A stretch of 64,000 nt of DNA from an uncultured Syntrophales bacterium. Lineage in GTDB: Bacteria; Desulfobacterota; Syntrophia; Syntrophales; JADFWA01. Positions 3,564 to 64,000 of the stretch are shown here, piece by piece (the first letter of the stretch is position 1; every line of letters starts with the position of its first letter). The notes under the pieces were generated by a model. It made no database searches. It saw only the letters and a list, made by a program, of their open reading frames with translations, and was not told where the DNA came from. The translations under genes and the position numbers were made by a program. The stretch spans positions 16,017 through 80,016 of the forward strand of contig CAZZBF010000003.1 in the NCBI GenBank assembly GCA_964652795.1. The letters are read 5' to 3'.

Positions 3564-4187
3564 CTAATGTTCTTCTTTATCCGCGTACCCGGTGATCATG
3601 GAAATAAAATCAGCAAAAATGGTATGACCCGTGGTGGCCAAATAAAGGTGAGCAATCAGGAAAGCGGTAAAAATGATTGCCATAATGAAGTGAATAACGG
3701 CTATTACTTTCAACCCACCGATAGCGATGATAAACCCTATGAATAAAGAAGGGAAGAGATACAAAATACCGCTTACCAGTAGAATAGGCATCATCAGGAA
3801 CATAAACTTAAAATATGCCATCTTTTGCAGTGGATTGAACTTATTATCCTCGGATGCGCTGTAGGGATGCGGCTCATCCTTGAATATACCGTAAGCATAA
3901 AATCTTGCCTGCCTGGGGATACCCGGATACAAGTCCTCTTTCTTCGGTATGTAGTGAGAAACCCGTGTTGAAATCAAATTGTAAAACAACCAGAGAAAGA
4001 AATCGAGAACCACAAGTATTCCTGACCATTCATGAACAGTTATGGCGTTTGAAAAAGACCCAAAAAAGTTTACAGAGTCAGGCCAGTGTATCTGTATGCC
4101 TGATACTATGAGCAATATGATAAGGACAGCATGTATCCAGTGCCATATTCTCTCGGTTAATGGATGTAAATACATTTTCTCAGACAT
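3564..4187 (-). CDS. membrane dihaem cytochrome b (FdnI/HydC/PhsC-like quinone-interacting subunit)
   Basis: The track ORF is 3564..4229. The likely start is ATG 4187 (MSEKMYLHPLTERIWHWIHAVLIILLIVSGIQIH), 4 nt after the TAG of the cytochrome c gene, with AAGGAG upstream. It has four hydrophobic helices with conserved His residues. Confidence 0.75.
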   Translation of the reverse strand: MSEKMYLHPLTERIWHWIHAVLIILLIVSGIQIHWPDSVNFFGSFSNAITVHEWSGILVVLDFFLWLFYNLISTRVSHYIPKKEDLYPGIPRQARFYAYGIFKDEPHPYSASEDNKFNPLQKMAYFKFMFLMMPILLVSGILYLFPSLFIGFIIAIGGLKVIAVIHFIMAIIFTAFLIAHLYLATTGHTIFADFISMITGYADKEEH

Positions 4188-8883: not shown

Positions 8884-10365
<1,482 letters not shown>

Positions 10366-21513: not shown

Positions 21514-21580
21514 TGAACTGAACAGCGAGCGCATTATTCTCCGAATTACTTCGTTCCTCGCAGCTTGCTGCGGGGAGATT
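21514..21580 (+). repeat. REP-like intergenic repeat, copy 2
   Basis: TGAACTGAACAGCGAGCGCATTATTCTCCGAATTACTTCGTTCC followed by the hairpin CGCAG-CTTG-CTGCG and GGGGAGATT. It abuts the yceD ribosome-binding site. Confidence 0.8.
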
Positions 21581-37582: not shown

Positions 37583-38635
37583 TTATATTACCCGGATTTT
37601 ACTTTTCGGTTCTGAGATTACCTCACCAACAATGGCTGCCTCCTCCATGCCTTCATCGTGCAACTTTTTGAGTAACTCATCTGCCTGATTTGGTGGTAAA
37701 GCAATTAATAGACCGCCGGCAGTTTGCGGATCAAAGAGAATATCCACCATCCAGTCGGGACAGTCGGTATCCTTCTTGATCATGTGCATGCGAAATTCCC
37801 TGTTTCTGTGCAAGCCTCCCGGCACTATCCCCATTTCTACTAATTCCCGGATTTCCCGGAAATAGGGAACGGAGGATGAATAGATAATCATTCCCACATC
37901 GCTTCCTTCTATCATCTCGCACGCATGACCGAGGAATCCGAAACCGGTTACATCCGTGCAAGCGTGAATATCGGCAAAATCCGCCATCAACTCTGCCGCC
38001 TTTTTATTTAAAGTGAGCATGCATTTTATCGATTGAGCCACCAGGTCATCATCGGCCATTTCCCCCTTCAAGGCTGTGTTTACAATCCCTGTTCCCAGAG
38101 ATTTGGTCAGGATGAGTTTGTCACCGGTCCTTGCGCCCCTGTTGAAAAGTACCTTGTCAGGGTGGATAATCCCGGTAACGGATAGCCCATACTTTAGCTC
38201 ATCATCTTCCACACTGTGTCCGCCGACCAGAACTACGTTCGCCTCCCGCATCTTATCCAGACCGCCGAGAAGAACCTGCTGGAGTATAAGAATATCCATC
38301 TTATTTATCGGAAAACATATTATATTCATGGCCGTAATCGGTTTTCCTCCCATGGCATAGACATCGGATAGTGAGTTTACCGCGGCAACCTGACCGAAAG
38401 TGTAAGGATCATCAACAATCGGAGTGAAAAAATCGAGTGTCTGAATAATGGCGAGGTCATCGCTCAGCTTATACACACCGGCATCCTCAGCGCTTTCCAT
38501 ACCCGCAATCAGGTTCGGATCGGACTGGAGTGGCAGTCCACGTAAAGCCTTGTCAAGGTCCCCCGGACCTATCTTGCAGGCTCACCCGGCACCATGTACC
38601 GTTTCCGTAAGACGTATTTTCGTTCTTTTATCCAT
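37583..38635 (-). CDS. selD: selenide, water dikinase SelD, selenocysteine-containing (UGA at 38582..38584)
   Basis: The track ORF 37583..38500 starts at an internal Met. The upstream in-frame reading is ATG 38635 MDKRTKIRLTETVHGAG-UGA-ACKIGPGDLDKAL..., and the UGA aligns with catalytic Cys17 of E. coli SelD (GAGCGCK). A hairpin lies downstream. Confidence 0.92.
38556..38584 (-). promoter_or_regulatory. SECIS element of selD
   Basis: UGA GCCUGCAAGAU AGGUCC-GGG-GGACCU, a 6-bp stem with the G-rich loop at nt 21-23 from the UGA. Confidence 0.8.
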
Positions 38636-46814: not shown

Positions 46815-47966
46815 TCAATGTAACATCTCCAAGAACGCCTCTATCCTTGTCTTTAATTGTCCCGTGTCCGAGGAGGAATAATCTGTCTCAATTTGTAGCA
46901 GTGGTATTTGATGCTCTTTCTCCAGAAATTCTTTGATAAGGTAGGATTCTACATTGTAGGTATGGCAGCAGTGCCAAGTTAGATCAACTACGCCCTGAAT
47001 CTTGAAGTCTTTAACAAGCCGGCCTAAAAGATTGATCCGGTCCTGATTGGGCGTCATACACGAGCAGGGAATTTTCAAATAACGGCTTGCGATGGATCTG
47101 TAAGGATCACCATCTTCATTTACAAGCAGATCAAAACTCTTTATACCTGTGCAATTCTCCTGGCAGACCACAACACCCCCGCATTCCTCGATCAACCGCA
47201 GAACCTTTTCCGAACCTTTTCCTATCGGACAACCGGTAAGAAGAATCCTTGGTACTTCGAGACTGCATACCGATTCCCCTTTCCTTTTTATGACCTCAAG
47301 CTCATAGGCAAGTTCCCGTAAGGCATTTAAATAGTTTTCGGGCTCAACGGAAAAATTCTTCGATTCCATCACCAGCATCATATCGAGGCCTGAAATAGGT
47401 ACGGGATACTCCGTGCAAAAGCTGACAATTTTCTTTAATAACATTCTTTTATTATTGTGAAGTTTGATCTGATGTCTTAACTCTTTTTCGGATATCCTTG
47501 TGCCTGTCTGAATCTCCAAAAAATCTTTAAGCCTTGCAATCTCTTCAATCCAGTAATTCAGGGAACGATCCCCGTCCGATGTGGGCGGCAGATGCATAAG
47601 AAACAACGGCTTAATTCTTTCCAATAGTTCAAACATCTTCTTCTTGCCGTCACAGGTGGTCTCCCCGATAATAAAATCGGAGAACCCAAAGTAGTTGCAT
47701 GTATTTGTAATGGCATACCCGAAGCTCGATTTGATCAGTGGGCAAAGATTGGCGGGAAGCACGGTTTCCGCGTCGCTAAGAGGGCTCTGATTCTTTCCGC
47801 AGAGACCCACAGGGATAGCTCCGGATGCACGAACCAGCTCTTTTGGAGCAAAGACACAGTACAGGCCAACAATCTTTATCCCTGCTTTCTTCATCTTTTC
47901 ACATTCAAGTTGGCTGTTTTCTCTTAAATGTTCAAACAGAGACATGCTTTCCGGTCTCAATGCCAA
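46815..47966 (-). CDS. HgdB/BcrB-family (2-hydroxyacyl-CoA dehydratase D-component-like) Cys-rich protein, paralogue B
   Basis: 383 aa. It aligns along its length with ORF 47980..49257 and shares nine Cys positions with it (GLYCVF, GLCG, NLCPLIKS, TCNYF, GETTCDGKKK, TGCPIG, ENCTG, PCSCMTPNQDR, HCCHTY). Confidence 0.8.
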   Translation of the reverse strand: MALRPESMSLFEHLRENSQLECEKMKKAGIKIVGLYCVFAPKELVRASGAIPVGLCGKNQSPLSDAETVLPANLCPLIKSSFGYAITNTCNYFGFSDFIIGETTCDGKKKMFELLERIKPLFLMHLPPTSDGDRSLNYWIEEIARLKDFLEIQTGTRISEKELRHQIKLHNNKRMLLKKIVSFCTEYPVPISGLDMMLVMESKNFSVEPENYLNALRELAYELEVIKRKGESVCSLEVPRILLTGCPIGKGSEKVLRLIEECGGVVVCQENCTGIKSFDLLVNEDGDPYRSIASRYLKIPCSCMTPNQDRINLLGRLVKDFKIQGVVDLTWHCCHTYNVESYLIKEFLEKEHQIPLLQIETDYSSSDTGQLKTRIEAFLEMLH

Positions 47967-47979
47967 TTTCCTTTACCTC

Positions 47980-49257
47980 CTACTTAATCAATTCTATGAA
48001 AGCCTCCACTCTTGTTCTGAGCTGTCCCACATCTTCCATGCTGTAGTCCGTATCAATACGAAGTGTTGGAATACTTTTTGCCTCGAGGGCCTTTTCCACC
48101 GGCATGGACTCCATAAGATAGGGCTGACAGAATTGCAGACCGTAATGGATGACGCCGTCCGCCTGATATTTTTCAGCCATCTCGACAATATGATCAAGAC
48201 GATCCGGATTTGGCGTGAAGATGGCGCAATCTACCTTGAAATAGCGGTCAACGATGGCCTCCATAAGTTCATCCACGGTATTACCGGAACCATCGGTAAG
48301 GTTGCGTGTGCCCCGCTCTCCCACGCATGACTCCTCTCCCACAATAACAGCACCGGCGGTTTCTATAATCCAGGGGAGCTTCCAGTTGGGAACGGCCATG
48401 GGGCAGCCGGATATTAAGATTCTTGGAGCTGATTCCGGGATGACGCCTTCTTTTTTTTCGATACGAGTCTCCAGTTCGTCGCAGATGTTATTAACCGAGT
48501 CGGTAAAACGCACGGGATCATCATAGAAAAAAACCTGGTTGGCTAAAAGCGCGTCCAGCCCTGAGATTGGGGCCGGGTTTGCCTTTCTCAGATATGAAAG
48601 CCTGTGAATGGCCTTTCGCTTGTTGTTGACGATCTCAATGCCTTTCTTGAGTCTGTCCGTGTCAATGGTTATGCCCGTAAGTTTTTCAACAGCCTCCTTG
48701 AAGCGCAGATATTCCGCTTTTAAAAGAGCCCTTCCTTCAGCAGATTTCACCTGCGGCAGGTCCATAACATAGAGGTTAGGGACGAGATCACTCAGTGTCT
48801 CGTAGGACTTTTTCTTGCCGTCGCAGGTATTCTCTCCCACAATCATGTCTGCGGATTCAAGATAGGGGCATACTTTCCCCAATTTGAATCCGAAGGCCGA
48901 CTTGATAAGGGAGCAGGTATTGCGGGGAAGGAGCTTTTCCACTTCTTCCATCGCAAAGTCGGCCCCTGTACAAAGACCAACCAGTGTAGCATCGGCAGCT
49001 CTCACGATTTCTTCCGGCACGAAGACGCAGAAGGAACCGATTACCTTCCGCCCGCTCGCCTTTTCGTTCATTAATTCTTTGATCCGCAGGCCGTGAACTT
49101 CGCTCATGACAAAATCAAAATATCCCATGCCCTCCGGCCGCTTCTTCTGGGCGAGATAAATATTCTGATAACCTTTACCAAGAACCTCCAGCAGGGCATC
49201 GTGCGCTGCGAGATCAAGTCCTAATGTTTCCCACATACTCTTGTAATCCTCGCTCAT
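47980..49257 (-). CDS. HgdA/BcrC-family (2-hydroxyacyl-CoA dehydratase D-component-like) Cys-rich protein, paralogue A
   Basis: 425 aa with motifs GSFCVF, GLCTG, NTCSLIKS, VCPYL, GENTCDGKKK, SGCPMA, ESCVG, DCAIFTPNPDR and FCQPY. It ends with the family-typical RIDTDYS...GQLRTRVEAF. Confidence 0.8.
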   Translation of the reverse strand: MSEDYKSMWETLGLDLAAHDALLEVLGKGYQNIYLAQKKRPEGMGYFDFVMSEVHGLRIKELMNEKASGRKVIGSFCVFVPEEIVRAADATLVGLCTGADFAMEEVEKLLPRNTCSLIKSAFGFKLGKVCPYLESADMIVGENTCDGKKKSYETLSDLVPNLYVMDLPQVKSAEGRALLKAEYLRFKEAVEKLTGITIDTDRLKKGIEIVNNKRKAIHRLSYLRKANPAPISGLDALLANQVFFYDDPVRFTDSVNNICDELETRIEKKEGVIPESAPRILISGCPMAVPNWKLPWIIETAGAVIVGEESCVGERGTRNLTDGSGNTVDELMEAIVDRYFKVDCAIFTPNPDRLDHIVEMAEKYQADGVIHYGLQFCQPYLMESMPVEKALEAKSIPTLRIDTDYSMEDVGQLRTRVEAFIELIK

Positions 49258-49626
49258 CTTTTTCCTCCTGTAAGTTTTTATTTAATAATCCCGCATACCT
49301 TTCCGCCCAAGGGTGAATTCAACAGCGTGATTCGGTCCTGACATGGAATTTCTTTTGCCATGTCAAGGTTTCCGTCAAAGCAGTTGAATACAATCCTGTT
49401 GCCTCTTCAGCTTACTGTAATGGTCTTTAACTACTCTATTCTTTTGAGATCGAAGACCGACTCAAAGAAAGACATACGAGCCAGACCGAAAAGATTTGAA
49501 AACTGGTGATTAAAAATGAAGGGAAGAAATTTGAGTTTCCAGTTTGGCCCTGTACCTACCGAACCCAGGTAGAATTTCGATCGTAGCTCAGGTAAAGCCG
49601 AAAAATTTATACATGACCAAACTCCT
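49258..49626 (-). repeat. 5' region of the HgdA-like gene, copy 1 of a duplicated ~370-bp segment
   Basis: It aligns base-for-base with 63482..63855. By eye the identity is roughly 85 percent in the distal 250 nt and lower near the ATG. Confidence 0.85.
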
Positions 49627-49951
49627 GTTAATATAGTTTTATATGACTACCTAAGTTTAAGGAATATGTCAAATTCATAATAGTTATAGTTTTTTGCTAA
49701 TTATAATTGAAATTTATGATAATTAAGTTATTTATGAGTTGTAATCAATGACGACCAAAGATTGTTCCCTTGACATAGCCGGTAGCTACGAACTGGATTT
49801 GTGGGAACGAATCAGATCGGAAAAAGAGGTAACCATGCTCGAATTATCAGATATTAGATAAAGGCTAAATACGATTAACAACCTATTTCCCCGTTATTGC
49901 GGGCTTTGAAATTTTTTGGGTTCCCAGGCCAATTAAAAGACTTTGTAGCTG

Positions 49952-51244
49952 TTAAAAGCTATATCGAATAGCCGTATAGATATTCGTATTATTCTCAAAT
50001 TGACCCCAAAAAGTATGAGACTCTTCTCCTGAAAAAATATTTGCTCCTGTTACTAATGTTATTTTGTCGGTGTACTTGTAACGTATGTTCGGACGAAGAT
50101 AGGCATCCCTGTCACTGGGCGAATAATACGACGAGAGGGATAATTCCAGATTCTGATTCATCAGCAATTTCGTTAATTGTAGCGTTATGACATGCCTGTC
50201 ATGATCCCGGGCCGGACCGCCGGATAGGTGTGTCATGTAATTACTATAATCCAGCATATACTCAATATAATATTGCAGGCTTGCGTTGAAGTCTCGTGCG
50301 AGATCCTGCGTATAACCTACTAGGTACCGCATTTCCGAGTTATTGACCAACGGGTTTGAACCGCTTTCGTCATCGACAGATTGATAATATGCATATTCGA
50401 TATTTCCGATCCCCGGACCGATCTGTCCCCTGGCGCTGAAACCGTAAACATTCAGATCGGGGAATATGTCCACGCCCGATGGTGTCTGGCCGCCGGGCCG
50501 TTTCCAGAACCCATGATAACCATATAAGGCCAATTCGTAGTTGCTGATATTTTGATAGATACGAACGGCAATCTCTTCATCCCGGAACCAGTGATCCGGT
50601 CTGTCGGCGGTGACAATCGCATCCCGGCCGGCACATCTTCCCAGCCGGTCATTCCAATATGAAACATATTCACCGGTGATGTACCTGTCCGCGTCAAACC
50701 GTGGCGTATAGACCACGTCAATATTGATCGGACCCGCAAAAAGACTTACTTTTGCGGCATCGGACGGGGCCTTAAGATACTCCTTGTCTCGTCCGATAAA
50801 ATATGACTGCCAGTCCTTGGGGAACATATCGTTGAGGAAAACAAGATCCCCCGTTCCCCAAGTCAGGACCTGGCGACCGATTTTGATATCCATAAAATCA
50901 AACGGCCGTGAGAACATCCAGGCCTCACGGGTGTCATATTTGCCTTCTTCGGTTACGCCGTCACCCCACACGTCCCCCTTGTACTTGAACTCCGCCCAAT
51001 CGGTGTAGGTGAAGAGTTCGGCCTGCAACCGGACCTCCATTACGGAAGCGTCTTTTTCATACGGGTCATTCTGCATACGGCAGCCCGCCCGTAGCTCAAG
51101 GAAACCATGTATCTCAAGAGGCGGAAGCTGATCCAAAAAAGGATTTTTATAGGCTTCCGCAGCGTGAACCGGAGGGACGGGGAACATCAGGACAATGAAC
51201 AGTGTTAACAGAAATAATTTGCCGGGATTTAAAAGAACTTTCAT
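49952..51244 (-). CDS. outer-membrane beta-barrel protein (unknown family)
   Basis: 430 aa with the signal peptide LFLLTLFIVLMFPVPPVHA. It has alternating-pattern beta-strand-like sequence rich in Tyr/Gly/Asp and a C-terminal AIRYSF ending in Phe. Confidence 0.65.
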   Translation of the reverse strand: MKVLLNPGKLFLLTLFIVLMFPVPPVHAAEAYKNPFLDQLPPLEIHGFLELRAGCRMQNDPYEKDASVMEVRLQAELFTYTDWAEFKYKGDVWGDGVTEEGKYDTREAWMFSRPFDFMDIKIGRQVLTWGTGDLVFLNDMFPKDWQSYFIGRDKEYLKAPSDAAKVSLFAGPINIDVVYTPRFDADRYITGEYVSYWNDRLGRCAGRDAIVTADRPDHWFRDEEIAVRIYQNISNYELALYGYHGFWKRPGGQTPSGVDIFPDLNVYGFSARGQIGPGIGNIEYAYYQSVDDESGSNPLVNNSEMRYLVGYTQDLARDFNASLQYYIEYMLDYSNYMTHLSGGPARDHDRHVITLQLTKLLMNQNLELSLSSYYSPSDRDAYLRPNIRYKYTDKITLVTGANIFSGEESHTFWGQFENNTNIYTAIRYSF

Positions 51245-55703: not shown

Positions 55704-55820
55704 ATTGACAACCTATTTGCCCGTTCTCGCAGACTTTGAACTGAACAGCGAGCGTATTATTCTCCGAATTACTTCGTTCCCCGCTACTTGTGGCGGGGTT
55801 AGCAAGCGAATAAAAATAAT
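55704..55820 (+). repeat. REP-like intergenic repeat, copy 3 (most complete: box A + core + hairpin + tail)
   Basis: ATTGACAACCTATTTGCCCGTTCTCGCAGACTTTGAA, then CTGAACAGCGAGCGTATTATTCTCCGAATTACTTCGTTCC, then CCCCGC-TACTTGTG-GCGGGG, then TTAGCAAGCGAATAAAAATAAT. A second related hairpin lies at 55845..55866. Confidence 0.85.
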
Positions 55821-55868: not shown

Positions 55869-56858
55869 TCAAATTTTTATAGGTGAGTGTTTGATAGAAT
55901 CACCTTTGTAAGAAGAAATAATCCTCTCTGCCTTCAGGATTGTTTCTTTAGCTTTTTCTAATGTTATGTGTGCCTTGTTGTCGTAGATTGTGTAATCTTT
56001 TCTGTGACGGTCGGGCGTGAAGTCTGGCATAATGACATTTGCTCCTGTCTTTAATCCGCGGAAAAGCCCCATTTCAGAATCGGCAGTTGCAATTGCCGTG
56101 GTCACGGGTATATGAGAGTTCCTGGTCACGATTCGTGCCAGTGCAAGGACTTTCAGCGCTAATGATAAATTTCCCTGAGGAGCCTGCGACAGCGGTGTAT
56201 CATGTTGAGGAATAAAAAGACCGACTGATAACATATCAGTATCCAGTTCCTTTAGCAGCAGGATATCCGCACAGAGATCATTTATGCTTTGACCTGGAAG
56301 GCCCACGATATTTCCGGTTCCGATCTGGTATCCCGTTTCCCGTAAAAATTTCAGGGTGCGTATCCTGTGTTTCAGGTACTGGCGGGGGTGGAATTTTTTG
56401 TACAGCTCTTCACTGGCTGTCTCATGCTTGAGCAGGTAGCGGTCTGCACCCGCGAATTTAAACGCCCTGTAGTCCTCAAAAGGTCTTTCTCCGACGCTCA
56501 GGGTAATTGCGACATCAGCATGGTCTTTTATGCGCTCTATGACCCGGCAGAGCATAGATTGAGTGAAATAAAAATCATCACCCGATTGCAAAACAATAGT
56601 TCTGATACCGAATGATATGATCTGCAGGGCAAGATCTATTATTTCTTCCTCATCCATTCGGTATCTGTTCAGATTTTTATTATCTTTCCGAAGTCCGCAA
56701 TAGAGACAGTTACGGCAGCAATAGCTGGAAAATTCGATGATACCCCTGATATGTACTTCATCACCGCAATGTTTCTTTCTGACTTTATCAGCCTTCTGAA
56801 AGAGTTCTTCATCTGTGGCTGAGGTTTGCAAATAGTATAAGATCTCATCCCTGTCCAT
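55869..56858 (-). CDS. hydE: [FeFe]-hydrogenase maturase HydE (radical SAM)
   Basis: 329 aa with CRNCLYCGLR (CX3CX2C). It is BioB-like and sits in an operon with hydG and hydF. Confidence 0.87.
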   Translation of the reverse strand: MDRDEILYYLQTSATDEELFQKADKVRKKHCGDEVHIRGIIEFSSYCCRNCLYCGLRKDNKNLNRYRMDEEEIIDLALQIISFGIRTIVLQSGDDFYFTQSMLCRVIERIKDHADVAITLSVGERPFEDYRAFKFAGADRYLLKHETASEELYKKFHPRQYLKHRIRTLKFLRETGYQIGTGNIVGLPGQSINDLCADILLLKELDTDMLSVGLFIPQHDTPLSQAPQGNLSLALKVLALARIVTRNSHIPVTTAIATADSEMGLFRGLKTGANVIMPDFTPDRHRKDYTIYDNKAHITLEKAKETILKAERIISSYKGDSIKHSPIKI

Positions 56859-57147
56859 ATATCTTTATTTGCTCTTTCAGTGACGATAGAATTTTTCCTC
56901 TTTCAGTGACGGGGATTTCCTTCCATCTATTCGAAACAATGCCGAACCGTTTATTCAGCCGGATGCGGTCCGAGGGAAAAAGAGAAATTTCCCCTTCTCT
57001 CTGTCCTGCAATATATGACCATCTTTTCCCTAATATCTCGGCAAACCATATGTTAACACCATATTCTTTCTTAACAAGGTCTGCTACACGGGCAAGTTTT
57101 CCTGTCAGATTTTCCTTAGAAATAGAGGTCCCTTTCCCCATTTTCAA
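56845..57147 (-). CDS. hypothetical 100-aa protein between hydG and hydE
   Basis: The ORF overlaps the hydG 3' end by 32 nt and the hydE start by 14 nt, which suggests translational coupling. I recognise no motif in MKMGKGTSISKENLTGKLARVADLVKKEYGVNIWFAEILGKRW.... Confidence 0.55.
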   Translation of the reverse strand: MKMGKGTSISKENLTGKLARVADLVKKEYGVNIWFAEILGKRWSYIAGQREGEISLFPSDRIRLNKRFGIVSNRWKEIPVTERGKILSSLKEQIKIYGQG

Positions 57148-58609
57148 TCCTTTTGCAATATTCCGTCAATTTCGGATATATAGAAGGCATTTGTTCTTTG
57201 ATTTCATTCATCTCTCTTTCTATTACTTTTTCTCCCATTTTCTTTGTTCCCTCACTGGCAAAATCATTCAGCCATTCCCTGAAGGTGAGCACCGCGTTGA
57301 GTTTGCAGAAACGACCTTCCTGTCCGCATTTCAGGAGTTTCATAATAAGTTTGCCGGTTCTCCCGCATCTGTAGCCCGCTGTGCAGAAAGATGTAATATA
57401 CCCCATTTCGGCAAGCTCTTTTATGAACTCATCCAGACTTCTTGGATCACCCAGAAGAAACTGTTGCCTTTTTGCCTCCTGTTCATCATATTTCTCACTA
57501 TAGGTACCAATGCCGATTTTCGTACCCGCGTCCGCCTGAGTAACTCCCAGCGGGATAACCTCACGGCGTAGCTGTGCACTTTCCCTCGCAGTTAAAATAA
57601 GACCCGTGTAAGGAACTGAAAGTCTTATTATAGTTACCAGTTTTTTAAAATCATCATCACAAACCCTGTAATCGGTTGAGCTTATAAAGGGAGTGTTTTC
57701 TGCCGGCTGTAGTCTTGGGATTGAAATAGTATGGGGTCCTACCCCAAATTGCTCTTCTAAATTTAAGGCATGGTACAACAAACCCATAACCTCGAATTTC
57801 CAGTTATACAGGCCAAAGAGCACGCCTATGCCCACGTCATCTATGCCGGCATCCATTGCCCTATGCAGAGAATAGAGTCTCCACCCATAATTTGATTTTG
57901 GTCCTTCAGAGTTGGGATGAACATCCCTATAGGTTTTATGATGGTATGTCTCTTGAAATACCTGATATGTTCCTATGCCCACTTCGTTTAGCATTCTGAG
58001 CTTTTCAATGCTCATTGAGGCAACATTGACATTAATTCTTCTTATTTCACCTCTTCCAATTTTTGTTTCGTAGATGGTACGAAGTACATCGGCAATGTAA
58101 TCGGCGTCCATGCTGGGATGTTCTCCACAATCCAGCATGAGACGTTTATGGCCCACGGAAATCATCGCCTTTGTTTCCTCTCGTACTTGATCCAGAGATA
58201 ATCGATTTCTCACTTCCTTTAGATTGTCTTTCCTGAAAGCACAATATAGGCAATCGTTAACACAAAGATTACCAAAATAAAGAGGCGCAAATGTTACGAT
58301 ACGGTTATCATAAACTTTTCTCTTCACCTCACCCGCCACCTCAAACATTTCATTCCATAACTCTTCATCTTGCACATTCAGTAGCGCTGCGGTTTCATCC
58401 CGGCTGAGAGTTTCTATGGAAAGGGATTTTTGAAGGATCTCTCTTATTTTTTTAGATTCGGGATTTTTATTCCTTGCAATTTCCCCCCATATTTTATCGT
58501 CGGATATAAAATCTTTCCCGTTGGTCATGTATCTTGTTATCTCATCCTCTTCGATAACACTTTTTGCCCAGTTTGACTCTGATTGGTTAAGAACTGATCC
58601 TGCGTTCAT
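57116..58609 (-). CDS. hydG: [FeFe]-hydrogenase maturase HydG (radical SAM tyrosine lyase)
   Basis: 497 aa with CVNDCLYCAFR and the C-terminal Cys cluster FCTAGYRCGRTG...CGQEGRFC. Confidence 0.9.
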   Translation of the reverse strand: MNAGSVLNQSESNWAKSVIEEDEITRYMTNGKDFISDDKIWGEIARNKNPESKKIREILQKSLSIETLSRDETAALLNVQDEELWNEMFEVAGEVKRKVYDNRIVTFAPLYFGNLCVNDCLYCAFRKDNLKEVRNRLSLDQVREETKAMISVGHKRLMLDCGEHPSMDADYIADVLRTIYETKIGRGEIRRINVNVASMSIEKLRMLNEVGIGTYQVFQETYHHKTYRDVHPNSEGPKSNYGWRLYSLHRAMDAGIDDVGIGVLFGLYNWKFEVMGLLYHALNLEEQFGVGPHTISIPRLQPAENTPFISSTDYRVCDDDFKKLVTIIRLSVPYTGLILTARESAQLRREVIPLGVTQADAGTKIGIGTYSEKYDEQEAKRQQFLLGDPRSLDEFIKELAEMGYITSFCTAGYRCGRTGKLIMKLLKCGQEGRFCKLNAVLTFREWLNDFASEGTKKMGEKVIEREMNEIKEQMPSIYPKLTEYCKRIENGERDLYF

Positions 58610-59870
58610 TTTTTAAATCCTCCTCGATTTCTTTCATTTTCTTGTCAAAAGCAACCAGTGCCGCGGGGAAGGGGGTCAGGGTTCTTCTCAATACACCTTG
58701 CAGAAAGGAGATGGCCACGCCATAATTTGTAATGGGCACCTTTGCCTCACACGCCTTTTGAATCCTGTTTAACATTTCTTTTCTGGTGAGCATACAGGCT
58801 CCGCAGTGTATGATGAGACTGTATTCTCTTAAGTTTTCCGGGTAATCCCTTCCCGCATAAACATCAATATCCAGTTCACAGCCTAAATATTGTTTTAGCC
58901 ACCTTGGTATTTTTACCCTCCCGATATCGTCCTGAACAGGGTGATGGGAGCATGCCTCCGCGATCAATACCTTGTCACCCGGGTTTAAAGTTTCTATAAA
59001 GGCGGCGCCCCTTGCCGCTTCTGCGAGGTCTCCCTTGTGCCTCGCGAAGAGGATGGAGAATGTGGTGGCCGGAACACCTTTCGGCGTGTCGGCACACATC
59101 TTCTGAACAACCTGGGAATCGCAGACAACGATATCGGGTTGCCTGTTTAAGGTGTTCAATGTATAGGAGAGTTCTCTTTCCTTTACAATCAGCGCCCCCG
59201 CGTCGCTATCCAGCGCGTCCCTTATAGTCTGAACTTGGGGCAGTATGATTCTCCCCTTTGGTGCCTCGAGGTCTATGGGAACGACGAGAACGGCCAGTCC
59301 TCCCGGAACAAGAAGGTCTCCGATTATCGGTGGTGGTTGGATGAAATCATCCGGGCAGACTTCAATCAGGTGTTGTTTTAAAGATTCTATATAACTATCT
59401 CTTTTCCCCCAGTCTATGCTGGACGCAAAAACCACATGTTCGGTCTTTTCTGAAATTAGTTTTATAAATTCGGGAGCCGGCTTTCTCTGATCAATCTTGT
59501 TTATTACTGCAATTGCGGGAACTTTTCTCTTCTTCGTTTCGCGGAACACTTCATCTTCAAAATTCGTCCATATATCCGGTTCTACAACAAGGAACACGAC
59601 ATCCGCTCTCTCGAATACATTGTGCGTCTTCTTCAGTCTCAAGGTCGAAAGGATGGATACGTCATCCAGGCCTCCAGTATCGAGAAAAAGTACCGGCCCC
59701 AGGGGTAGAAGCTCCATCGCCTTTTCCACAATATCGGTGGTTGTTCCCGCGATGGGCGATGTGATGGCTATATCCTGTCCCATGATAAGATTGAGCAAAC
59801 TTGATTTGCCCACATTTGTCCTGCCGAAGAGGGCAATTTGCAACCTATCTCCCTTTGGCGTTCCTTTCAT
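58587..59870 (-). CDS. hydF: [FeFe]-hydrogenase maturation GTPase HydF
   Basis: 427 aa with the G1 motif GRTNVGKSS, DTGG, NKID and the C-terminal cluster motif EACSHH...HCGACML. Confidence 0.9.
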   Translation of the reverse strand: MKGTPKGDRLQIALFGRTNVGKSSLLNLIMGQDIAITSPIAGTTTDIVEKAMELLPLGPVLFLDTGGLDDVSILSTLRLKKTHNVFERADVVFLVVEPDIWTNFEDEVFRETKKRKVPAIAVINKIDQRKPAPEFIKLISEKTEHVVFASSIDWGKRDSYIESLKQHLIEVCPDDFIQPPPIIGDLLVPGGLAVLVVPIDLEAPKGRIILPQVQTIRDALDSDAGALIVKERELSYTLNTLNRQPDIVVCDSQVVQKMCADTPKGVPATTFSILFARHKGDLAEAARGAAFIETLNPGDKVLIAEACSHHPVQDDIGRVKIPRWLKQYLGCELDIDVYAGRDYPENLREYSLIIHCGACMLTRKEMLNRIQKACEAKVPITNYGVAISFLQGVLRRTLTPFPAALVAFDKKMKEIEEDLKNERRISS

Positions 59871-61245
59871 AATTGCTATTTCCCAAAGCTGTTATTCTAT
59901 AGGGAGAAAACATCTTTTCTATCAGTTCTATCCCCAGTTCATCTTCCAGAAACCTTCTCATATCTTTTTGACCGGCCGAAACAAACTCGTCGATTAACTC
60001 TGTCGCCTTTTCATAACCGATAACAGGTAAAAGCGCCGTAATGATCATAGGACTTTTGTCAAAATATTCCTTGCACTTTTCTTCATCAGCTCTTATTTGA
60101 TTCACATGTTCCGATAGAAGGTCATTTATGTTGACAAGTATATCCAGAGATTCCAGGATTGCGTGAGCGAGAAGAGGTAGAAATTCGTTTATCTGCAGTG
60201 TTCCCCTGCTTACTACCTCAGTCACTATGAAATCATTCGCGATTACCTTCATTCCCGCCTGCATTGCCGACTCCAGCATCACGGGGTTGACCTTGCCGGG
60301 CATGATGGATGAGCCCGCCTGAAGCTCAGGAAGTTTTATCTCACCCAAAAGATTCAGCAACCTCAAGTCATTGCATATCTTTATTATATTCGCAGCATGT
60401 GCCTTCAGGATACCGGAAACCTCAACGAAGGGATCGGCATTGGCTGTTTCTCCCATTATGTTTTCTCCCCTGGAGAGACCAAGCCCGGTGATATCACGCA
60501 GTTTCTCTATGACCAGAAAGATATAGTCCCGAGGAGAGGTAAGCCCGGTTCCTACTGCTGTTCCTCCGAGGTTTACGACTCGCAGTCGTTCCTCACATTT
60601 AAATGTCCTCCATCTGTCTCTTGAAATAGCCTCGGCAAATGCTGAAAATTCGGCACCAAGGGTGATGGGAACAGCCTCCTGCAGTTCCGTCCTTCCGATC
60701 TTAACCATTTTCCCGAATTCTTTCTCCTTTTTCTGGAAGGCGCCCTGCAGATGGGCAATCGTTTGACTGAGAACTCTCAAAGAGTATATACAGGCGATTT
60801 TTATCGCGGTAGGGTACGTATCGTTCGTTGACTGATGGAGGTTTACGTCTTCGAGGGGATGAACGAGAGAATAAATTCCTTTTTCTCCTCCCAGAATTTC
60901 TATTGCCCTGTTGGCGACAACCTCATTTACATTCATGTTTGTCGACGTGCCCGCTCCGCCCTGGAGGGCATCGATAGGAAATTGTTTTAGGAGCTTGCCG
61001 TCGATAATTTCGTTACAGGCGGTGATTATCGCCTTTGCCTTTTTCCCATGCAGGTATTCCAACTCGGAGTTGGCCATGCAGCAGGCCTTTTTCACCATCG
61101 CCACAGCCTTAATCAGGGATGGATTCACCGTATGACCGCTAATCTGGAAATTACAAAGAGCTCTTTGTGTGTGTATGCCCCAGTAAACATCACAGGGGAT
61201 CTTTATCTTTCCGAGAAAGTCATGTTCTAGGCGCAGGTCATCCAT
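59845..61245 (-). CDS. aspartate ammonia-lyase / fumarase-family lyase
   Basis: ATG 61245 gives MDDLRLEHDFLGKIKIPCDVYWGIHTQRAL and forms an ATGGATGA overlap with the upstream gene. It has the signature GSSIMPGKVNP. The track start is 61284. Confidence 0.88.
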   Translation of the reverse strand: MDDLRLEHDFLGKIKIPCDVYWGIHTQRALCNFQISGHTVNPSLIKAVAMVKKACCMANSELEYLHGKKAKAIITACNEIIDGKLLKQFPIDALQGGAGTSTNMNVNEVVANRAIEILGGEKGIYSLVHPLEDVNLHQSTNDTYPTAIKIACIYSLRVLSQTIAHLQGAFQKKEKEFGKMVKIGRTELQEAVPITLGAEFSAFAEAISRDRWRTFKCEERLRVVNLGGTAVGTGLTSPRDYIFLVIEKLRDITGLGLSRGENIMGETANADPFVEVSGILKAHAANIIKICNDLRLLNLLGEIKLPELQAGSSIMPGKVNPVMLESAMQAGMKVIANDFIVTEVVSRGTLQINEFLPLLAHAILESLDILVNINDLLSEHVNQIRADEEKCKEYFDKSPMIITALLPVIGYEKATELIDEFVSAGQKDMRRFLEDELGIELIEKMFSPYRITALGNSNYERNAKGR

Positions 61246-61495
61246 TTTCTTTTGCCATCGTTGATTTGACTGTAACCCCTTCAATCATACCGAGCTTTCC
61301 TGTCATTGCTCCTATATCACTTACGGTACCGTCCACAATGAGTGCGATTACACTAACCTCTCTTTCGGCGTATGGAATGCCCATCCTTCCAACAATAATG
61401 TCTCCATATTGGGTGAGTAACTCATTTACCTTCGGGGCGCGATCCTTCCTATTATGAATAATAATTCCGACAATACCTACTCTCCTTTTTTCCAT
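61238..61495 (-). CDS. TM1266-like small protein (putative [FeFe]-hydrogenase system regulator family)
   Basis: 85 aa: MEKRRVGIVGIIIHNRKDRAPKVNELLTQYGDIIVGRMGIPY...VIALIVDGT. It is the ACT/NikR-C-like family I recall as always linked to hydEFG. Confidence 0.7.
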   Translation of the reverse strand: MEKRRVGIVGIIIHNRKDRAPKVNELLTQYGDIIVGRMGIPYAEREVSVIALIVDGTVSDIGAMTGKLGMIEGVTVKSTMAKENG

Positions 61496-61506
61496 TCTTC
61501 CCTCCG

Positions 61507-61541
61507 ATAAAAAACCCAGCTTGTACTGAACGGGCTGGGTT
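61507..61541 (-). terminator. rho-independent terminator after hydB
   Basis: The minus strand reads AACCCAGC-CCGUUCAGUACAA-GCUGGGUU followed by UUUUUAU. This separates hydAB from the maturation operon. Confidence 0.8.
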
Positions 61542-61613
61542 TTCTATTGTTTCTTCCCGCCCTTGGGTTCAGAAGCATCCCTTGCCTCAGGCTGCTATAC
61601 AAATTAAAATATT

Positions 61614-61943
61614 TTACACTTTGAGTTTGAGACCGCTTTCCTTAAGCCTTTTCACCCTGCTGGAACGGTCAATGTAATGGGTGTGCAGGAGCCGGTGCGA
61701 CATATGAGAACAAGGTTCATGAAGAAAATCCTTGTAAATCTTGTGAACCGCCGGGCTGTCCTGGGACTTCCTGAATTTCATTTTTGTGTCATGTGCATAG
61801 ACGGATTTCTGCCTTTCAGTAAGATAGTCTTTTACTGCCGCATAAGTAAATTTAGCGAAGTTCCAACTATACAATACGGCCCCAACAGTAATTCCGGAAA
61901 CTTTGACAAATTGACGTCTCGTCATTTTAGCAATATCTTTCAT
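61614..61943 (-). CDS. hydB: periplasmic [FeFe]-hydrogenase small subunit with Tat signal
   Basis: 109 aa with MTRRQFVKVSGITVGAVL (twin-arginine signal), then AAVKDYLTERQKSVYAHD...HMSHRLLHTHYIDRS. It closely parallels Desulfovibrio HydB. Confidence 0.9.
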   Translation of the reverse strand: MKDIAKMTRRQFVKVSGITVGAVLYSWNFAKFTYAAVKDYLTERQKSVYAHDTKMKFRKSQDSPAVHKIYKDFLHEPCSHMSHRLLHTHYIDRSSRVKRLKESGLKLKV

Positions 61944-61956
61944 GTCATTCCTCCTG

Positions 61957-63210
61957 TTAAGCCACTCTTCTTATGTTAAATCTTCTGTTCATCGTGGCAA
62001 TCATTGTTCTAAACAAAGAGGCCTCGCGCGCGTCGGGGAAAAGAGGCTGCCCGCCGCCATTGATACAACCGCCAGTACATGCCATAACCTCTATAAAGTG
62101 GTATTTACACTTTCCTTTTTTGATATCCTCAAGAATCGGTACCGTGTTTTTGAGACCGCTCACCACACAGACCCTCAACTCACCGAATTTAGGAATCTTT
62201 ATTTTGGCAGCTTTGACACCTTTATGAGTTCGAACAGATTTAATGTCAGGATTTTTCAGTTTTTTACCGGATACGACCTCATAGGCAAGACGAAGGGCCG
62301 CTTCCATAACACCGCCGCTGTTGCTGAAGATGGTACTGGCACCTGTGGATTCTCCCAGTTCAAAATCCGGTTTCTCATCGGGAAGGCTTTTGAAATCGAT
62401 ACCGGCCTTCTTGATCATATAGGCAAGCTCCCGGGTTGTGATCGTGGCATCAATATCTCTGAAGCCACTGTCGGCCATCTCAGGCCTCAGCCCCTCATAC
62501 TTTTTGGCCACGCAAGGCATAATGGAGACTGTATACATCTTCTTAGCGGGTGTTTCTGACACCTCGGCGCCATAGGTCTTTGACAGGGGTCCCAGCATAG
62601 CGATGGGCGACTTGCATGTTGACACATGGGGGGACAGTTCGGGATAAAACGTCTCCACAAATTTGATCCATCCCGGGCAACAGGAGGTAAACTGCGGAAG
62701 CGGTTTCTTTACTTTGCCGGTAAGTCTGCCGACAAGCTCGGTTCCTTCTTCCATAATGGTAACATCGGCAGTCATCTGATTGTCCCAGATGCGATCGAAA
62801 CCAAGCTTTCGAAGCGCCGCAAAGAGTTTCCCCCCCACATAAGTTCCTGTGGGATAGCCGAACGGCTCACCAAGACCGTAACGAACAGCAGGCGCGGGCA
62901 TGGAGACAACGACCTTGTTAGGGTCTTTCAGGGCGTGAAAAACCTCGTCCACAAACGAAACACCTTCATAAATTGCCCCGTATGGACAATTGATGAGACA
63001 CTGAGCGCAGTTCATGCATGCCGCGGGGTCGACCACCGTTCGGGGTCCGTCCTTTCCATCCCTCGGCTGAATTGCACCTGTCGCGCAGTGAGTTTCACAT
63101 ACACCGCATTGTTGGCACTTGTTCTCGTCCACCTGAACAAAAAACGCGTTATCGTAGTCTTTTGTATCAGGCGCATTGCTTAATTCTAGAACGTTTTCAA
63201 TTTGTTTCAT
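61957..63210 (-). CDS. hydA: periplasmic [FeFe]-hydrogenase large subunit
   Basis: 417 aa with two ferredoxin motifs (CQQCGVCETHC, CMNCAQCLINCP) and the H-cluster motifs TSCCPGW, MPCVAKKYE and EVMACTGGCINGGGQP. Confidence 0.95.
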   Translation of the reverse strand: MKQIENVLELSNAPDTKDYDNAFFVQVDENKCQQCGVCETHCATGAIQPRDGKDGPRTVVDPAACMNCAQCLINCPYGAIYEGVSFVDEVFHALKDPNKVVVSMPAPAVRYGLGEPFGYPTGTYVGGKLFAALRKLGFDRIWDNQMTADVTIMEEGTELVGRLTGKVKKPLPQFTSCCPGWIKFVETFYPELSPHVSTCKSPIAMLGPLSKTYGAEVSETPAKKMYTVSIMPCVAKKYEGLRPEMADSGFRDIDATITTRELAYMIKKAGIDFKSLPDEKPDFELGESTGASTIFSNSGGVMEAALRLAYEVVSGKKLKNPDIKSVRTHKGVKAAKIKIPKFGELRVCVVSGLKNTVPILEDIKKGKCKYHFIEVMACTGGCINGGGQPLFPDAREASLFRTMIATMNRRFNIRRVA

Positions 63211-63433
63211 AATTTCCTCCTCTCTTTATTTTTTACGCAAATCTTTAACTTTTACCAGTCTTCCAACTTTATTAGATGGAAGGAAAATGCTATGCTATTT
63301 TTAGCTTATGTCTTTTGTGACATAGCCTATACCTGAGTCTTGCCCTTCTGTCAATACTTTTTAGGAAAATTTTTCTTAAAATTATCGTGGGCTGATCACG
63401 AATTCTTATCAAAACATGATAATCACCTCCCCT

Positions 63434-63481
63434 TTTCTCGTTCATTAATTCTTTAATCCGCAGGCCATGGTCTTTGCTCAT
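63434..63481 (-). pseudogene. 48-nt 5' stub of an HgdA-like gene
   Basis: MSKDHGLRIKELMNEK matches MSEVHGLRIKELMNEK (residues 52-67 of ORF 47980..49257) and is preceded by the duplicated leader. Beyond codon 16 the track ORF 63290..63481 shows no similarity. Confidence 0.75.
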
Positions 63482-63855
63482 CCTGTCTCCTTGAATAATT
63501 TTTTGTTTATAAGCTCCCTTATATCCTACCGCCTGTGGGTAAATTCAGCAGTATGGTTCGGTTCTGGCGCGGGATTTCATATTTCATGTTGAAGTGTCTA
63601 TCAAAGCAGTTGAAGACAATTCTGTTGATTCTTCAGCTTACTGTAATGGTCTTGAACCGCTCTCTTCTTTTGATATCGAAGACAGTCTCACAAAGAAGTA
63701 TATGATGAGCCGGACTGGAAAGATTTGAAAATTGGCGATTAGAAATGAAGGAAAGAAATTTGAGTTTCCAGTTTGGCCCTGTGCCTACCGAACCCGGGCA
63801 GAATTTCGATCGCAGCTCAGGTAAAGCCGAAAAATTTATACATGGCCAAACTCCT
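63482..63855 (-). repeat. duplicated ~370-bp 5' region, copy 2
   Basis: It aligns with 49258..49626, for example AGAAATTTGAGTTTCCAGTTTGGCCCTGT(A/G)CCTACCGAACCC and CAGGTAAAGCCGAAAAATTTATACATG. Confidence 0.85.
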
Positions 63856-63919
63856 TATGGAAGGGTTTTTGCAGCACCCTTGCGGGGTGATTATTCCGTT
63901 TATATCAGATAGTCACTTT

Positions 63920-64000
63920 TTATATATTGACTACCTTGCCGGCAGTTAAGAGAGCATCAACCATTTCATACATATTGGTTATTTTGCCGATCCTCAGTTT
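63920..64000 (-). CDS. 3' end of an unidentified gene (partial)
   Basis: Open minus-strand frame entering from the window edge: ...KLRIGKITNMYEMVDALLTAGKVVNI*, with TAA at 63920..63922. It is too short to assign. Confidence 0.3.
   Translation of the reverse strand, partial: KLRIGKITNMYEMVDALLTAGKVVNI

Follow-up and report, generated by a model that had tools for sequence, protein, structure and literature searches.

A leader RNA that occurs twice in a 64,000-nt stretch of DNA from an uncultured Syntrophales bacterium (assembly GCA_964652795.1, contig CAZZBF010000003.1, positions 16,017 to 80,016; hereafter the window) appears to belong to a widespread family that heads selenium-related operons. 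This leader is itself the main result: a module in which a short upstream open reading frame (uORF) ends in UGA and is followed by a hairpin, with covariation supporting its helices. One copy, B, precedes a gene for a double-cubane reductase, and the other, A, lies on the same strand upstream of the [FeFe] hydrogenase genes hydAB, from which it is separated by a stub of the reductase gene. On balance, and with modest confidence, we favour the reading that the duplicated segment is a second leader copy of a selenium-linked reductase operon, an attenuator that would read the capacity to decode selenocysteine (Sec), and that hydAB is probably partly under its control. From its architecture we infer that the leader would act as a sensor of Sec decoding. 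Capture of the leader by hydAB is plausible on the comparisons described below, whereas capture of a promoter is not supported.

The element was delimited by comparison with relatives. A profile of copies A and B indicates that only the first ~165 nt of the duplicated leader recur elsewhere, at variable distance from and orientation to the reductase gene, and a covariance model (R1) was built from 16 element sequences. In the window R1 returns copies A and B only, both with E close to 1e-20: the 96-nt core of copy A, from the Shine-Dalgarno (SD) site to the 3' strand of helix P1, lies at 63761..63856 (89.7 bits, E = 1.5e-20) and that of copy B at 49532..49627 (88.7 bits, E = 2.8e-20). These and all other genes, hairpins, promoter-like sites and leader parts of the window for which positions are given here are on the minus strand. 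A sample of 80 relatives' reductase loci contains 37 R1 matches, and 64 more were found in 120 metagenome stretches retrieved with a short pattern that comprised only GGCTTYACNTGA and part of the P2 loop. The total is 94 distinct copies from Desulfobacterota genomes and metagenomes. When the window and nine relatives' loci are searched with Rfam 15, only tRNA and tRNA-Sec reach the gathering score, no relevant match is obtained for copies A and B at E values up to 10, and no description of the element was found in the literature on Sec/UGA leader peptides or selenium attenuators. The 96-nt element is thus apparently an undescribed leader without an Rfam family.

The order of parts is an SD site, AUG, two variable codons, the residues F-F-G-F-T, UGA, a spacer of 15-16 nt, the hairpin P2 and GGGYCAGGCYGRAAA. 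In copy A the uORF (63817..63843) reads AUG UAU AAA UUU UUC GGC UUU ACC UGA (MYKFFGFT-stop), with the SD sequence AGGAG at 63855-63851 and the UGA at 63819-63817; the uORF of copy B is at 49614-49588 and its UGA at 49590-49588. An SD-like site is present in 80/94 copies and an AUG or GUG start in 92/94, and 79 of these 92 have a frame of exactly eight sense codons. All 94 copies stop at UGA. Of the last three codons, the first always encodes Gly (GGC, GGU or GGA), the second is UUU or UUC (Phe) apart from one UAC (Tyr), and the third is Thr, for which all four codons are used. Since the variation of GGN-UUY-ACN is limited to third positions, it argues that the mini-ORF is translated, and the conservation of the uORF is codon-like and consistent with translation. 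There are no tandem regulatory sense codons in the uORF, and the terminal UGA is the only candidate for a sensing codon. One metagenome contig carries a second element copy (L156:2474-2570, minus strand) in which UGC (Cys) replaces UGA and the mini-ORF runs on; the copy may be decaying, or may represent a natural 'Cys mutant' of the leader.

Two helices are supported by the metagenome alignment (A4), on which covariation was tested against 500 column shuffles. In P1, codons 4-6 of the uORF pair with CYGRAAA ~50 nt past the UGA to give 10 bp, 86-97% paired, and all seven outer pairs have changed on both sides. P2 is a 5-bp hairpin with the 7-nt loop CGKGUUY, in which 96% of cells are paired and 4/5 pairs have changed on both sides. 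For P1 and P2 together 90% of cells are paired, 13 pairs show two-sided change and 0/500 shuffles reach the score; when the partners are shifted, pairing drops to 27-54%. In copy A the P1 strands are at 63827..63834 (UUUUUCGG, within uORF codons 4-6) and 63765..63771 (CUGGAAA; 49542-49536 in copy B), and P2 (CUGCC-CGGGUUC-GGUAG), 15 nt past the UGA, is at 63785..63801 (49572-49556 in copy B). The distance from UGA to P2 is fixed at 15-16 nt while the intervening sequence is free. The P2 loop begins 21-22 nt past the UGA, inside the range of about 16-37 nt taken for bacterial Sec insertion signals, the median for 21 Sec insertion sequence (SECIS) loops of selD from the same loci being +21, and its consensus C-G-K-G-U-Y-Y exposes a G (GU). 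In this respect P2 is SECIS-like. A pseudoknot between ACCUG (including the UG of UGA) and the P2 loop, suggested by RNAalifold, was rejected, its middle pair being unpaired in 21/43 sequences. Copies A and B also share with the closest relative, L001 (reductase 92% identical), a complementarity between the SD-AUG spacer AGUUUGGCC (63844-63854 in copy A) and the region-2 sequence GGCCAAACU (63772-63782). This helix, which a two-sequence alifold of the two copies favours, is specific to the lineage and absent from other relatives; being strong, it is a competitor of P1 and could hide the start region of the uORF.

Downstream of P1 the sequence is poor in G. Over the 60 nt past the element G makes up 10-19% and C 27-31%, C exceeds G across the first 70 nt in 73/77 instances, and the tract may be described as rut-like (resembling Rho utilisation sites) in composition. 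An intrinsic terminator within 200 nt of the element was found in 1/88 instances, and there is none in the relevant part of either window copy. Another ~40 nt on comes a second motif, UUUYCAGUCYGGCUCAY, with complementarity to region 2, the segment that holds the 3' strand of P1; in copy A the C/U-rich, G-poor tract at 63705..63760 ends in this motif (CUUUCCAGUCCGGCUCAU, 63722-63705), as judged from composition and duplex prediction. For region 2 the best duplexes are concentrated +38 to +43 downstream (mean z = -1.2), and the best duplex of regions 2 and 3 (2:3) in copy A has -20.3 kcal/mol (z = -3.9). With their own partners the sequences form 7.75 pairs as against 7.25 with swapped partners, a value reached by 9/2000 permutations. 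The alternative 2:3 pairing is suggestive. Taken at the level of comparative analysis, the 96-nt core and what adjoins it show a conserved cis-regulatory module of uORF, spacer, P2, P1 and a G-poor, C-rich tract.

The genes that follow the element, surveyed in the annotated element-bearing loci among relatives and metagenome contigs, have a common theme. In every annotated case the element is oriented towards the downstream genes, which argues that it is the leader of a selenium-related regulon. In many relatives the gene directly after it is tRNA(Sec)-like and 92 nt long, its discriminator being U73 and its anticodon UCA or GCA, and this selC*-like tRNA is followed in turn by a SelB paralogue (TIGR00475, 303 bits). 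These are the selC* tRNA(Cys)/selB*/cysS* loci of Desulfobacterales and Syntrophobacterales (Mukai et al., PMC5389517). Among the recovered relatives are two Desulfomonile metagenome-assembled genomes (L020 and L025), and in L020 the element stands ahead of selC*. Other copies head yedE-yedF-DUF3343-selD, selD alone, fdhA/fdhB, HdrD-like/HdrA/MvhD operons, or double-cubane reductases with an activase. Where the Sec position is recognisable, the downstream selD is of the Sec type in 7/7 cases and fdhA of the Cys type in 2/2. We infer that this gene set represents something like a selenium-limitation response. Occasionally the element is also present before genes for a CooC-like ATPase and the acetyl-CoA synthase beta subunit (L189:1510-4156, with the same arrangement in L107), a PstS-like ABC (ATP-binding cassette) transporter (L180:2890-5910) and a MauE/DoxX membrane protein (L100:1233-2071), contexts which imply a regulon wider than selenium uptake and Sec/Cys isoenzymes.

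Several of these loci depart from the common arrangement. In L174 the tRNA(Sec)-like gene lies 58-150 nt past the element (4075-4171, minus strand) and is assigned the anticodon UUA by ARAGORN, which would read UAA; a SelB paralogue comes next. In L006 (609-1100) and L007 (9676-10000) the element and a selC*-like tRNA are followed directly by the reductase gene, with no selB* between them; the tRNA of L006 is not called by ARAGORN and may be degenerate. In L012 (4157-5666) an HdrA-like gene past the element is divided between two ORFs that overlap and differ in frame, the result of a frameshift or an assembly error and not of an in-frame UGA. In the window no selC*-type tRNA is found by Rfam or ARAGORN. 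The 3' part of the duplicated leader was considered as a degraded selC* and rejected: ARAGORN finds none there, and alignment to ten selC* genes remains at noise level.

That hydAB is preceded by a duplicate of the leader at 49 kb had been proposed in a first-pass annotation of this DNA, and the similarity is borne out. Local alignment of 63855-63476 with 49626-49252 gives 313/383 identities (81.7% over 383 columns), and a repeat search independently returns both the leader pair and a stub match (63435-63481 against 49061-49107, 87%). The similarity is far above chance and uneven along the segment: identity falls from 93.8% over the initial 96 nt to 77% over the following 69 nt and 73% over what remains of the leader, and is 87.5% in the stub. 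The last part of the leader (63482..63704 in copy A) is common to copies A and B only, and is not found in L001 or other relatives. The stub itself is an ORF of 63 codons (63290..63481) with its own SD sequence, AAGGAG. As described earlier, its first 16 codons (63481-63434) match the full reductase gene, at codons 51-66, and unrelated sequence follows; the stub peptide MSKDHGLRIKELMNEK shares 13/16 residues with MSEVHGLRIKELMNEK of the full gene. The distance from the end of homology to the start of hydA at 63210, given before as about 220 nt, is 223 nt on the same strand.

The origin of the stub can be read from its junction. The first-pass annotation had placed its start at residue 52, after an N-terminal extension of 51 residues; because (49257-49107)/3 = 50, the internal Met is codon 51, the extension has 50 residues and the missing piece is 150 nt. 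In the full gene the hexamer ATGAGC is present at both codon 1 and codon 51. In copy A the leader passes straight from ...GGATGAGC into coding sequence equivalent to codon 51, and the junction falls in the repeated ATGAGC, so a 150-nt deletion between the repeats accounts for the stub. This agrees with one of the two origins put forward before; the other, a donor paralogue that lacked the extension, is unlikely because all 80 recovered relatives carry the 425-aa form. The second reductase gene of the window was ruled out as a source, its N-terminus being unrelated. The extension itself (49108-49257) lies outside the NF040772 profile, whose match begins at residue 50, and is kept in 80/80 relatives (75-92% overall identity).

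The segment had been described as a captured promoter and leader, and the two parts of this claim fare differently. A complete and well-conserved leader copy does lie upstream of hydAB on the same strand. The promoter part is not supported: the A/B homology begins exactly at the SD site of the uORF, and the AT-rich region upstream of copy B (49628..49750, with TTGACA at 49672-49667) is outside the duplication and not present at copy A. A history of the duplication is suggested by L001, which has a single element copy in the order MarR-MMPL-LolA-430aa, AT-rich region, remnant of a YedF-like gene end with a hairpin, element and full reductase gene. Its AT-rich region (9360-9484) is 88% identical to that preceding copy B. 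Upstream of copy A lie a YedF/DsrE-like gene, which leaves the window so that its 3' end alone is included (63923..64000; identified by tblastn against relatives' YedF C-termini and the L001 remnant), and then the hairpin CACCCCGCAAGGGTG (63891-63877), and L001 keeps the same flank as a remnant. From this arrangement it follows that the flank upstream of copy A is the ancestral one, and that at copy B the promoter region and the downstream gene are ancestral. As a 220-nt part of the 3' leader is common to copies A and B and not present in L001, the duplication is younger than the split from that lineage. The event would be a segmental duplication, most simply a tandem one, of a block with one end upstream of hydA and the other near codon 66 of the reductase gene, and would give the junction observed, a stub fused to the upstream region of hydA. 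Copy B would later have lost the YedF-like piece, and the 150-nt deletion would have shortened the stub. No longer contig reaching past window position 64000 was found; HydB has a match on a 1.7-kb contig only, and no record matches HydA exactly.

Copy A is probably functional, to judge from how its core has changed. Cores A and B differ at six positions in 96 nt while the adjoining leader is 23-27% diverged (P = 2e-7). When the changes are polarised with L001 as outgroup, two are specific to A and four to B; ~13 would be expected from the divergence of the adjoining leader (binomial P = 1e-4), and from this deficit it is argued that copy A remains under selection. Of the two A-specific changes, one falls in the variable spacer and the other converts an A-U pair of P2 to G-U, both of them structurally harmless, and the SD site, uORF, P1, P2 and second motif are all intact. 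Nothing but the hyd cluster lies downstream of copy A: hydA, for the [FeFe] hydrogenase large subunit, at 61957..63210 (PF02906, E = 1e-89), then hydB, TM1266-like and aspartase-like genes and hydF/G/E at 55869-61943 (assigned by Pfam families). The stub ORF ends within 80 nt of hydA, and with its own SD sequence it would keep read-through transcripts translated.

An intact and conserved copy A, heading what looks like a selenium-limitation regulon elsewhere, argues that the selenium-free [FeFe] hydAB-hydEFG genes are probably at least partly under the same control; hydAB may thus be controlled by selenium through copy A. A selenium-free [FeFe] hydrogenase fits such a regulon, and in D. vulgaris selenium reportedly represses the [FeFe] enzyme. 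In that organism selenium is reported to regulate the expression of periplasmic hydrogenases, and the availability of metals, selenium included, shifts which enzyme is dominant (PMC10920352, citing Valente et al. 2006). The earlier suggestion that the hydrogenase and the 10-kb reductase array share upstream control is retained as far as the leader is concerned, and the link is re-read as one from selenium status to the hydrogenase, not from 2-hydroxyacyl-CoA chemistry to H2.

Other observations weigh against this control and would suit the view, which we regard as unlikely, that copy A is a non-functional relic, that hydAB is transcribed only from its own promoter past the stub, and that the similarity of the cores reflects gene conversion or a recent event. 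The reductase gene has been reduced to a 16-codon stub, and between copy A and hydA there is a sigma-70-like site, TTGACA-17-TATAGG (63354-63326, read from the sequence), together with a terminator-like hairpin (63401-63385, from a terminator scan), so hydA may also start independently. This candidate promoter lacks the conserved final T of the -10 hexamer, which is why the promoter scanner missed it; as for the hairpin, it is weak and its U tract poor; a TTGACA site is present upstream of hydA in the relative L082 too. None of the ~90 other element copies in the sample precedes hydA. In a relative at 80% identity the long region upstream of hydA is its own, contains a TTGACA site and lacks the element; the intact reductase gene envisaged upstream of hydA in relatives is likewise absent there, its place being taken by 780 nt of intergenic DNA and a divergent peptidase gene. 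The closest hydA relatives either are without the element or lie on contigs that are too short, that of a relative with 95% HydA identity beginning 98 nt upstream of hydA. The output tract (nt 96-165) has more A-specific than B-specific changes, 9 against 4, and gene conversion could mimic selection on the core. What a relic does not readily explain is a core with so few differences beside a leader diverged by about a quarter, with both A-lineage changes harmless and every part from SD site to second motif intact.

As to mechanism, we tentatively propose a new type of selenium sensor, in which the UGA of the leader mini-ORF would be decoded as Sec by means of its own SECIS-like hairpin and the position of the ribosome, acting through P1 versus 2:3 and through Rho, would control a selenium-limitation regulon of Desulfobacterota. 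This regulon would comprise yedE/yedF/selD for uptake, selC*/selB* as a Cys-for-Sec backup, Cys-type isoenzymes and double-cubane reductases, and in the window a selenium-free [FeFe] hydrogenase would have been recruited to it by duplication. The module would work as a trp-like, ribosome-mediated attenuator whose sensing codon, UGA, reports Sec decoding capacity. When the Sec-tRNA(Sec)-SelB complex is scarce, the ribosome would wait at the UGA and cover region 1, region 2 would pair with region 3 and transcription would go on; the conserved GFT peptide may slow release factor 2 (RF2) at this codon. When the complex is plentiful, the UGA would be decoded and the ribosome would advance, in 43/94 copies to an in-frame UAG ten codons on, which lies inside the 3' arm of P2, thereby covering region 2. 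The C-rich region 3 would then be left single-stranded and Rho would end transcription.

Several features count against this scheme. The frame past the UGA is not conserved, with a spacer of 15 or 16 nt and 2-53 codons to the following in-frame stop, so that the UGA may be a plain stop, and no conserved protein is encoded after it. The P2 loop (CGKGUUY) is unlike the GGA loop of the clade's selD SECIS elements, the copies fold singly no better than shuffled sequences (z = 0.0 and -0.35), and support for helix 2:3 is modest, with register shifts in the L002 subgroup. In a rather improbable alternative, which the unconserved frame past the UGA would suit, the leader serves a selenium regulon without sensing UGA decoding: its structured RNA would bind a small molecule or a protein, be it SelB, SelB* or some other factor, much as a riboswitch or the SECIS-like element of the E. 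coli selAB leader does, and the sole task of the uORF would be the opening of P1 or the coupling of translation to Rho. As is common among riboswitches, a conserved core is enclosed by P1, and the most conserved nucleotides, GGCUUUACCUGA and CCCGKGUUYGG, could form a binding surface. SelB* is encoded directly downstream in many loci, and Thanbichler and Bock (2002) reportedly found that SelB binds a SECIS-like hairpin in the 5' untranslated region of selAB. However, third-position variation in the Gly-Phe-Thr codons, with all four Thr codons in use, fits a translated peptide and not a nucleotide-specific pocket; the candidate pseudoknot of ACCUG with the P2 loop fails; a fixed UGA-P2 distance over free sequence is what would be predicted for a signal positioned by the ribosome; and even the permissive Rfam search finds no family. 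An arrest peptide of the tnaC kind, in which the Gly-Phe-Thr chain would block RF2 at the UGA in response to a metabolite and the stalled ribosome would mask or expose a Rho site with no part for SelB or Sec-tRNA, is a poor prospect: it would suit the conserved C-terminal tripeptide, the invariant RF2-specific stop and the rut-like tract with no intrinsic terminator, but leaves the covarying hairpin at SECIS distance and the exclusive association with selenium genes unaccounted for, and the C-rich tract begins ~55 nt past the UGA, outside the footprint of a stalled ribosome.

The proposed sensor shares features with several known systems. Like the trp, his and pheA attenuators it has a short uORF that overlaps region 1 of a helix (1:2), to which 2:3 would be the mutually exclusive alternative, the position of the ribosome is proposed to report a single charged tRNA, and it heads a functionally coherent regulon. 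It departs from them in that its candidate sensing codon is a single terminal UGA and not a tandem of sense codons, in that regions 1 and 2 are separated by a SECIS-like hairpin, and in having no 3:4 intrinsic terminator, so that termination, if any, would be Rho-dependent. The E. coli tna operon offers a second parallel: the tnaC uORF ends in UGA after conserved C-terminal residues, with output through a downstream Rho loading region. There, free tryptophan is sensed via the nascent peptide, no SECIS-like hairpin is known and the rut site abuts the stop codon. The element resembles tnaC in a uORF ending in G-F/Y-T-UGA in 94/94 copies; its C-rich, G-poor tract downstream is a candidate Rho loading site, and it differs in having the hairpin and in the distance of that tract from the UGA. 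With the bacterial SECIS elements of fdhF and selD it shares a UGA followed by a covarying hairpin whose loop lies ~21 nt on and contains G/GU; in contrast to these it has no conserved protein after the UGA, sits in a leader, is enclosed by P1 and has a loop unlike that of selD. The SECIS-like leader element of E. coli selAB is not known to have a UGA or uORF. The closest functional precedent is found in Treponema primitia, where selenium controls transcription of fdhF(Sec) via translation across the UGA/SECIS, which changes transcript elongation (PMC3892789); there the UGA and SECIS are inside the regulated selenoprotein gene, whereas the element described here has a dedicated mini-ORF before mostly non-selenoprotein genes.

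The association with selenium genes also touches two systems already described. Many relatives' loci are the selC*/selB* loci (PMC5389517), from which the window differs in having no selC*; the available portion of that paper's main text describes no upstream leader and no link to double-cubane reductases. That double-cubane reductases are associated both with SelD and with the SAO system has been reported by Haft and Gwadz (bioRxiv 10.1101/2022.07.06.499078), in whose preprint the words 'leader' and 'riboswitch' do not occur. The window resembles the SAO system in having NF040772 reductases beside a nitrate/sulfonate/taurine-type ABC transporter, an activase, a DsrE-like protein and SelD, and differs in that its permease and ATPase fall below the cut-offs for SaoP (187 bits, cut-off 295) and SaoA (267 bits, cut-off 360). 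The window transporter is therefore related to the SAO system and not a member of it.

The reductase array itself begins with the full-length gene at 47980..49257, which has the 50-aa N-terminal extension, and a second reductase gene at 46815-47966. These were first labelled 'HgdA-like' and 'HgdB-like', which is misleading: at 471 and 506 bits both exceed the NF040772 cut-off of 350, they are far below the cut-offs of the 2-hydroxyacyl-CoA dehydratase and benzoyl-CoA reductase models, and both are double-cubane-cluster anaerobic reductases. The array goes on with genes for an NMT1-type binding protein, the SaoP-like permease, the SaoA-like ATPase, TauE, a corrinoid methyltransferase and the activase, and with selD (37583..38635), a selenoprotein gene with its Sec UGA at 38584-38582 that provides the in-genome SECIS reference. 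It reads MDKRTKIRLTETVHGAG-U-ACKIGPG, and is shortened to 305 aa in the ORF list. Between the LolA-like gene and copy B lies a 430-aa ORF (49952-51244) that is conserved in L001 and has no match in Pfam or NCBIfam. A 62-nt intergenic direct repeat (90% identity) occurs at 21514-21575 and 55737-55798, the second copy between hydE and the MarR gene, and a related stretch is present in L001 at 8991-9057.

Accounts of how bacteria sense selenium so far comprise only a LysR-type regulator, predicted and proposed for this role (PMC5322559), and one demonstrated case of translational coupling within a gene (PMC3892789). If the proposal is correct, a compact and widespread leader that reports UGA/Sec decoding would make selenium sensing directly testable, and for annotation the element marks selenium-regulon operons. 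It would also place the puzzling selC* tRNA(Cys)/selB* system in a regulatory setting and lend independent support to the unexplained link between double-cubane reductases and selenium. For sulfate reducers and their relatives, it would offer a possible mechanism for the selenium-dependent switching of hydrogenase isoenzymes.

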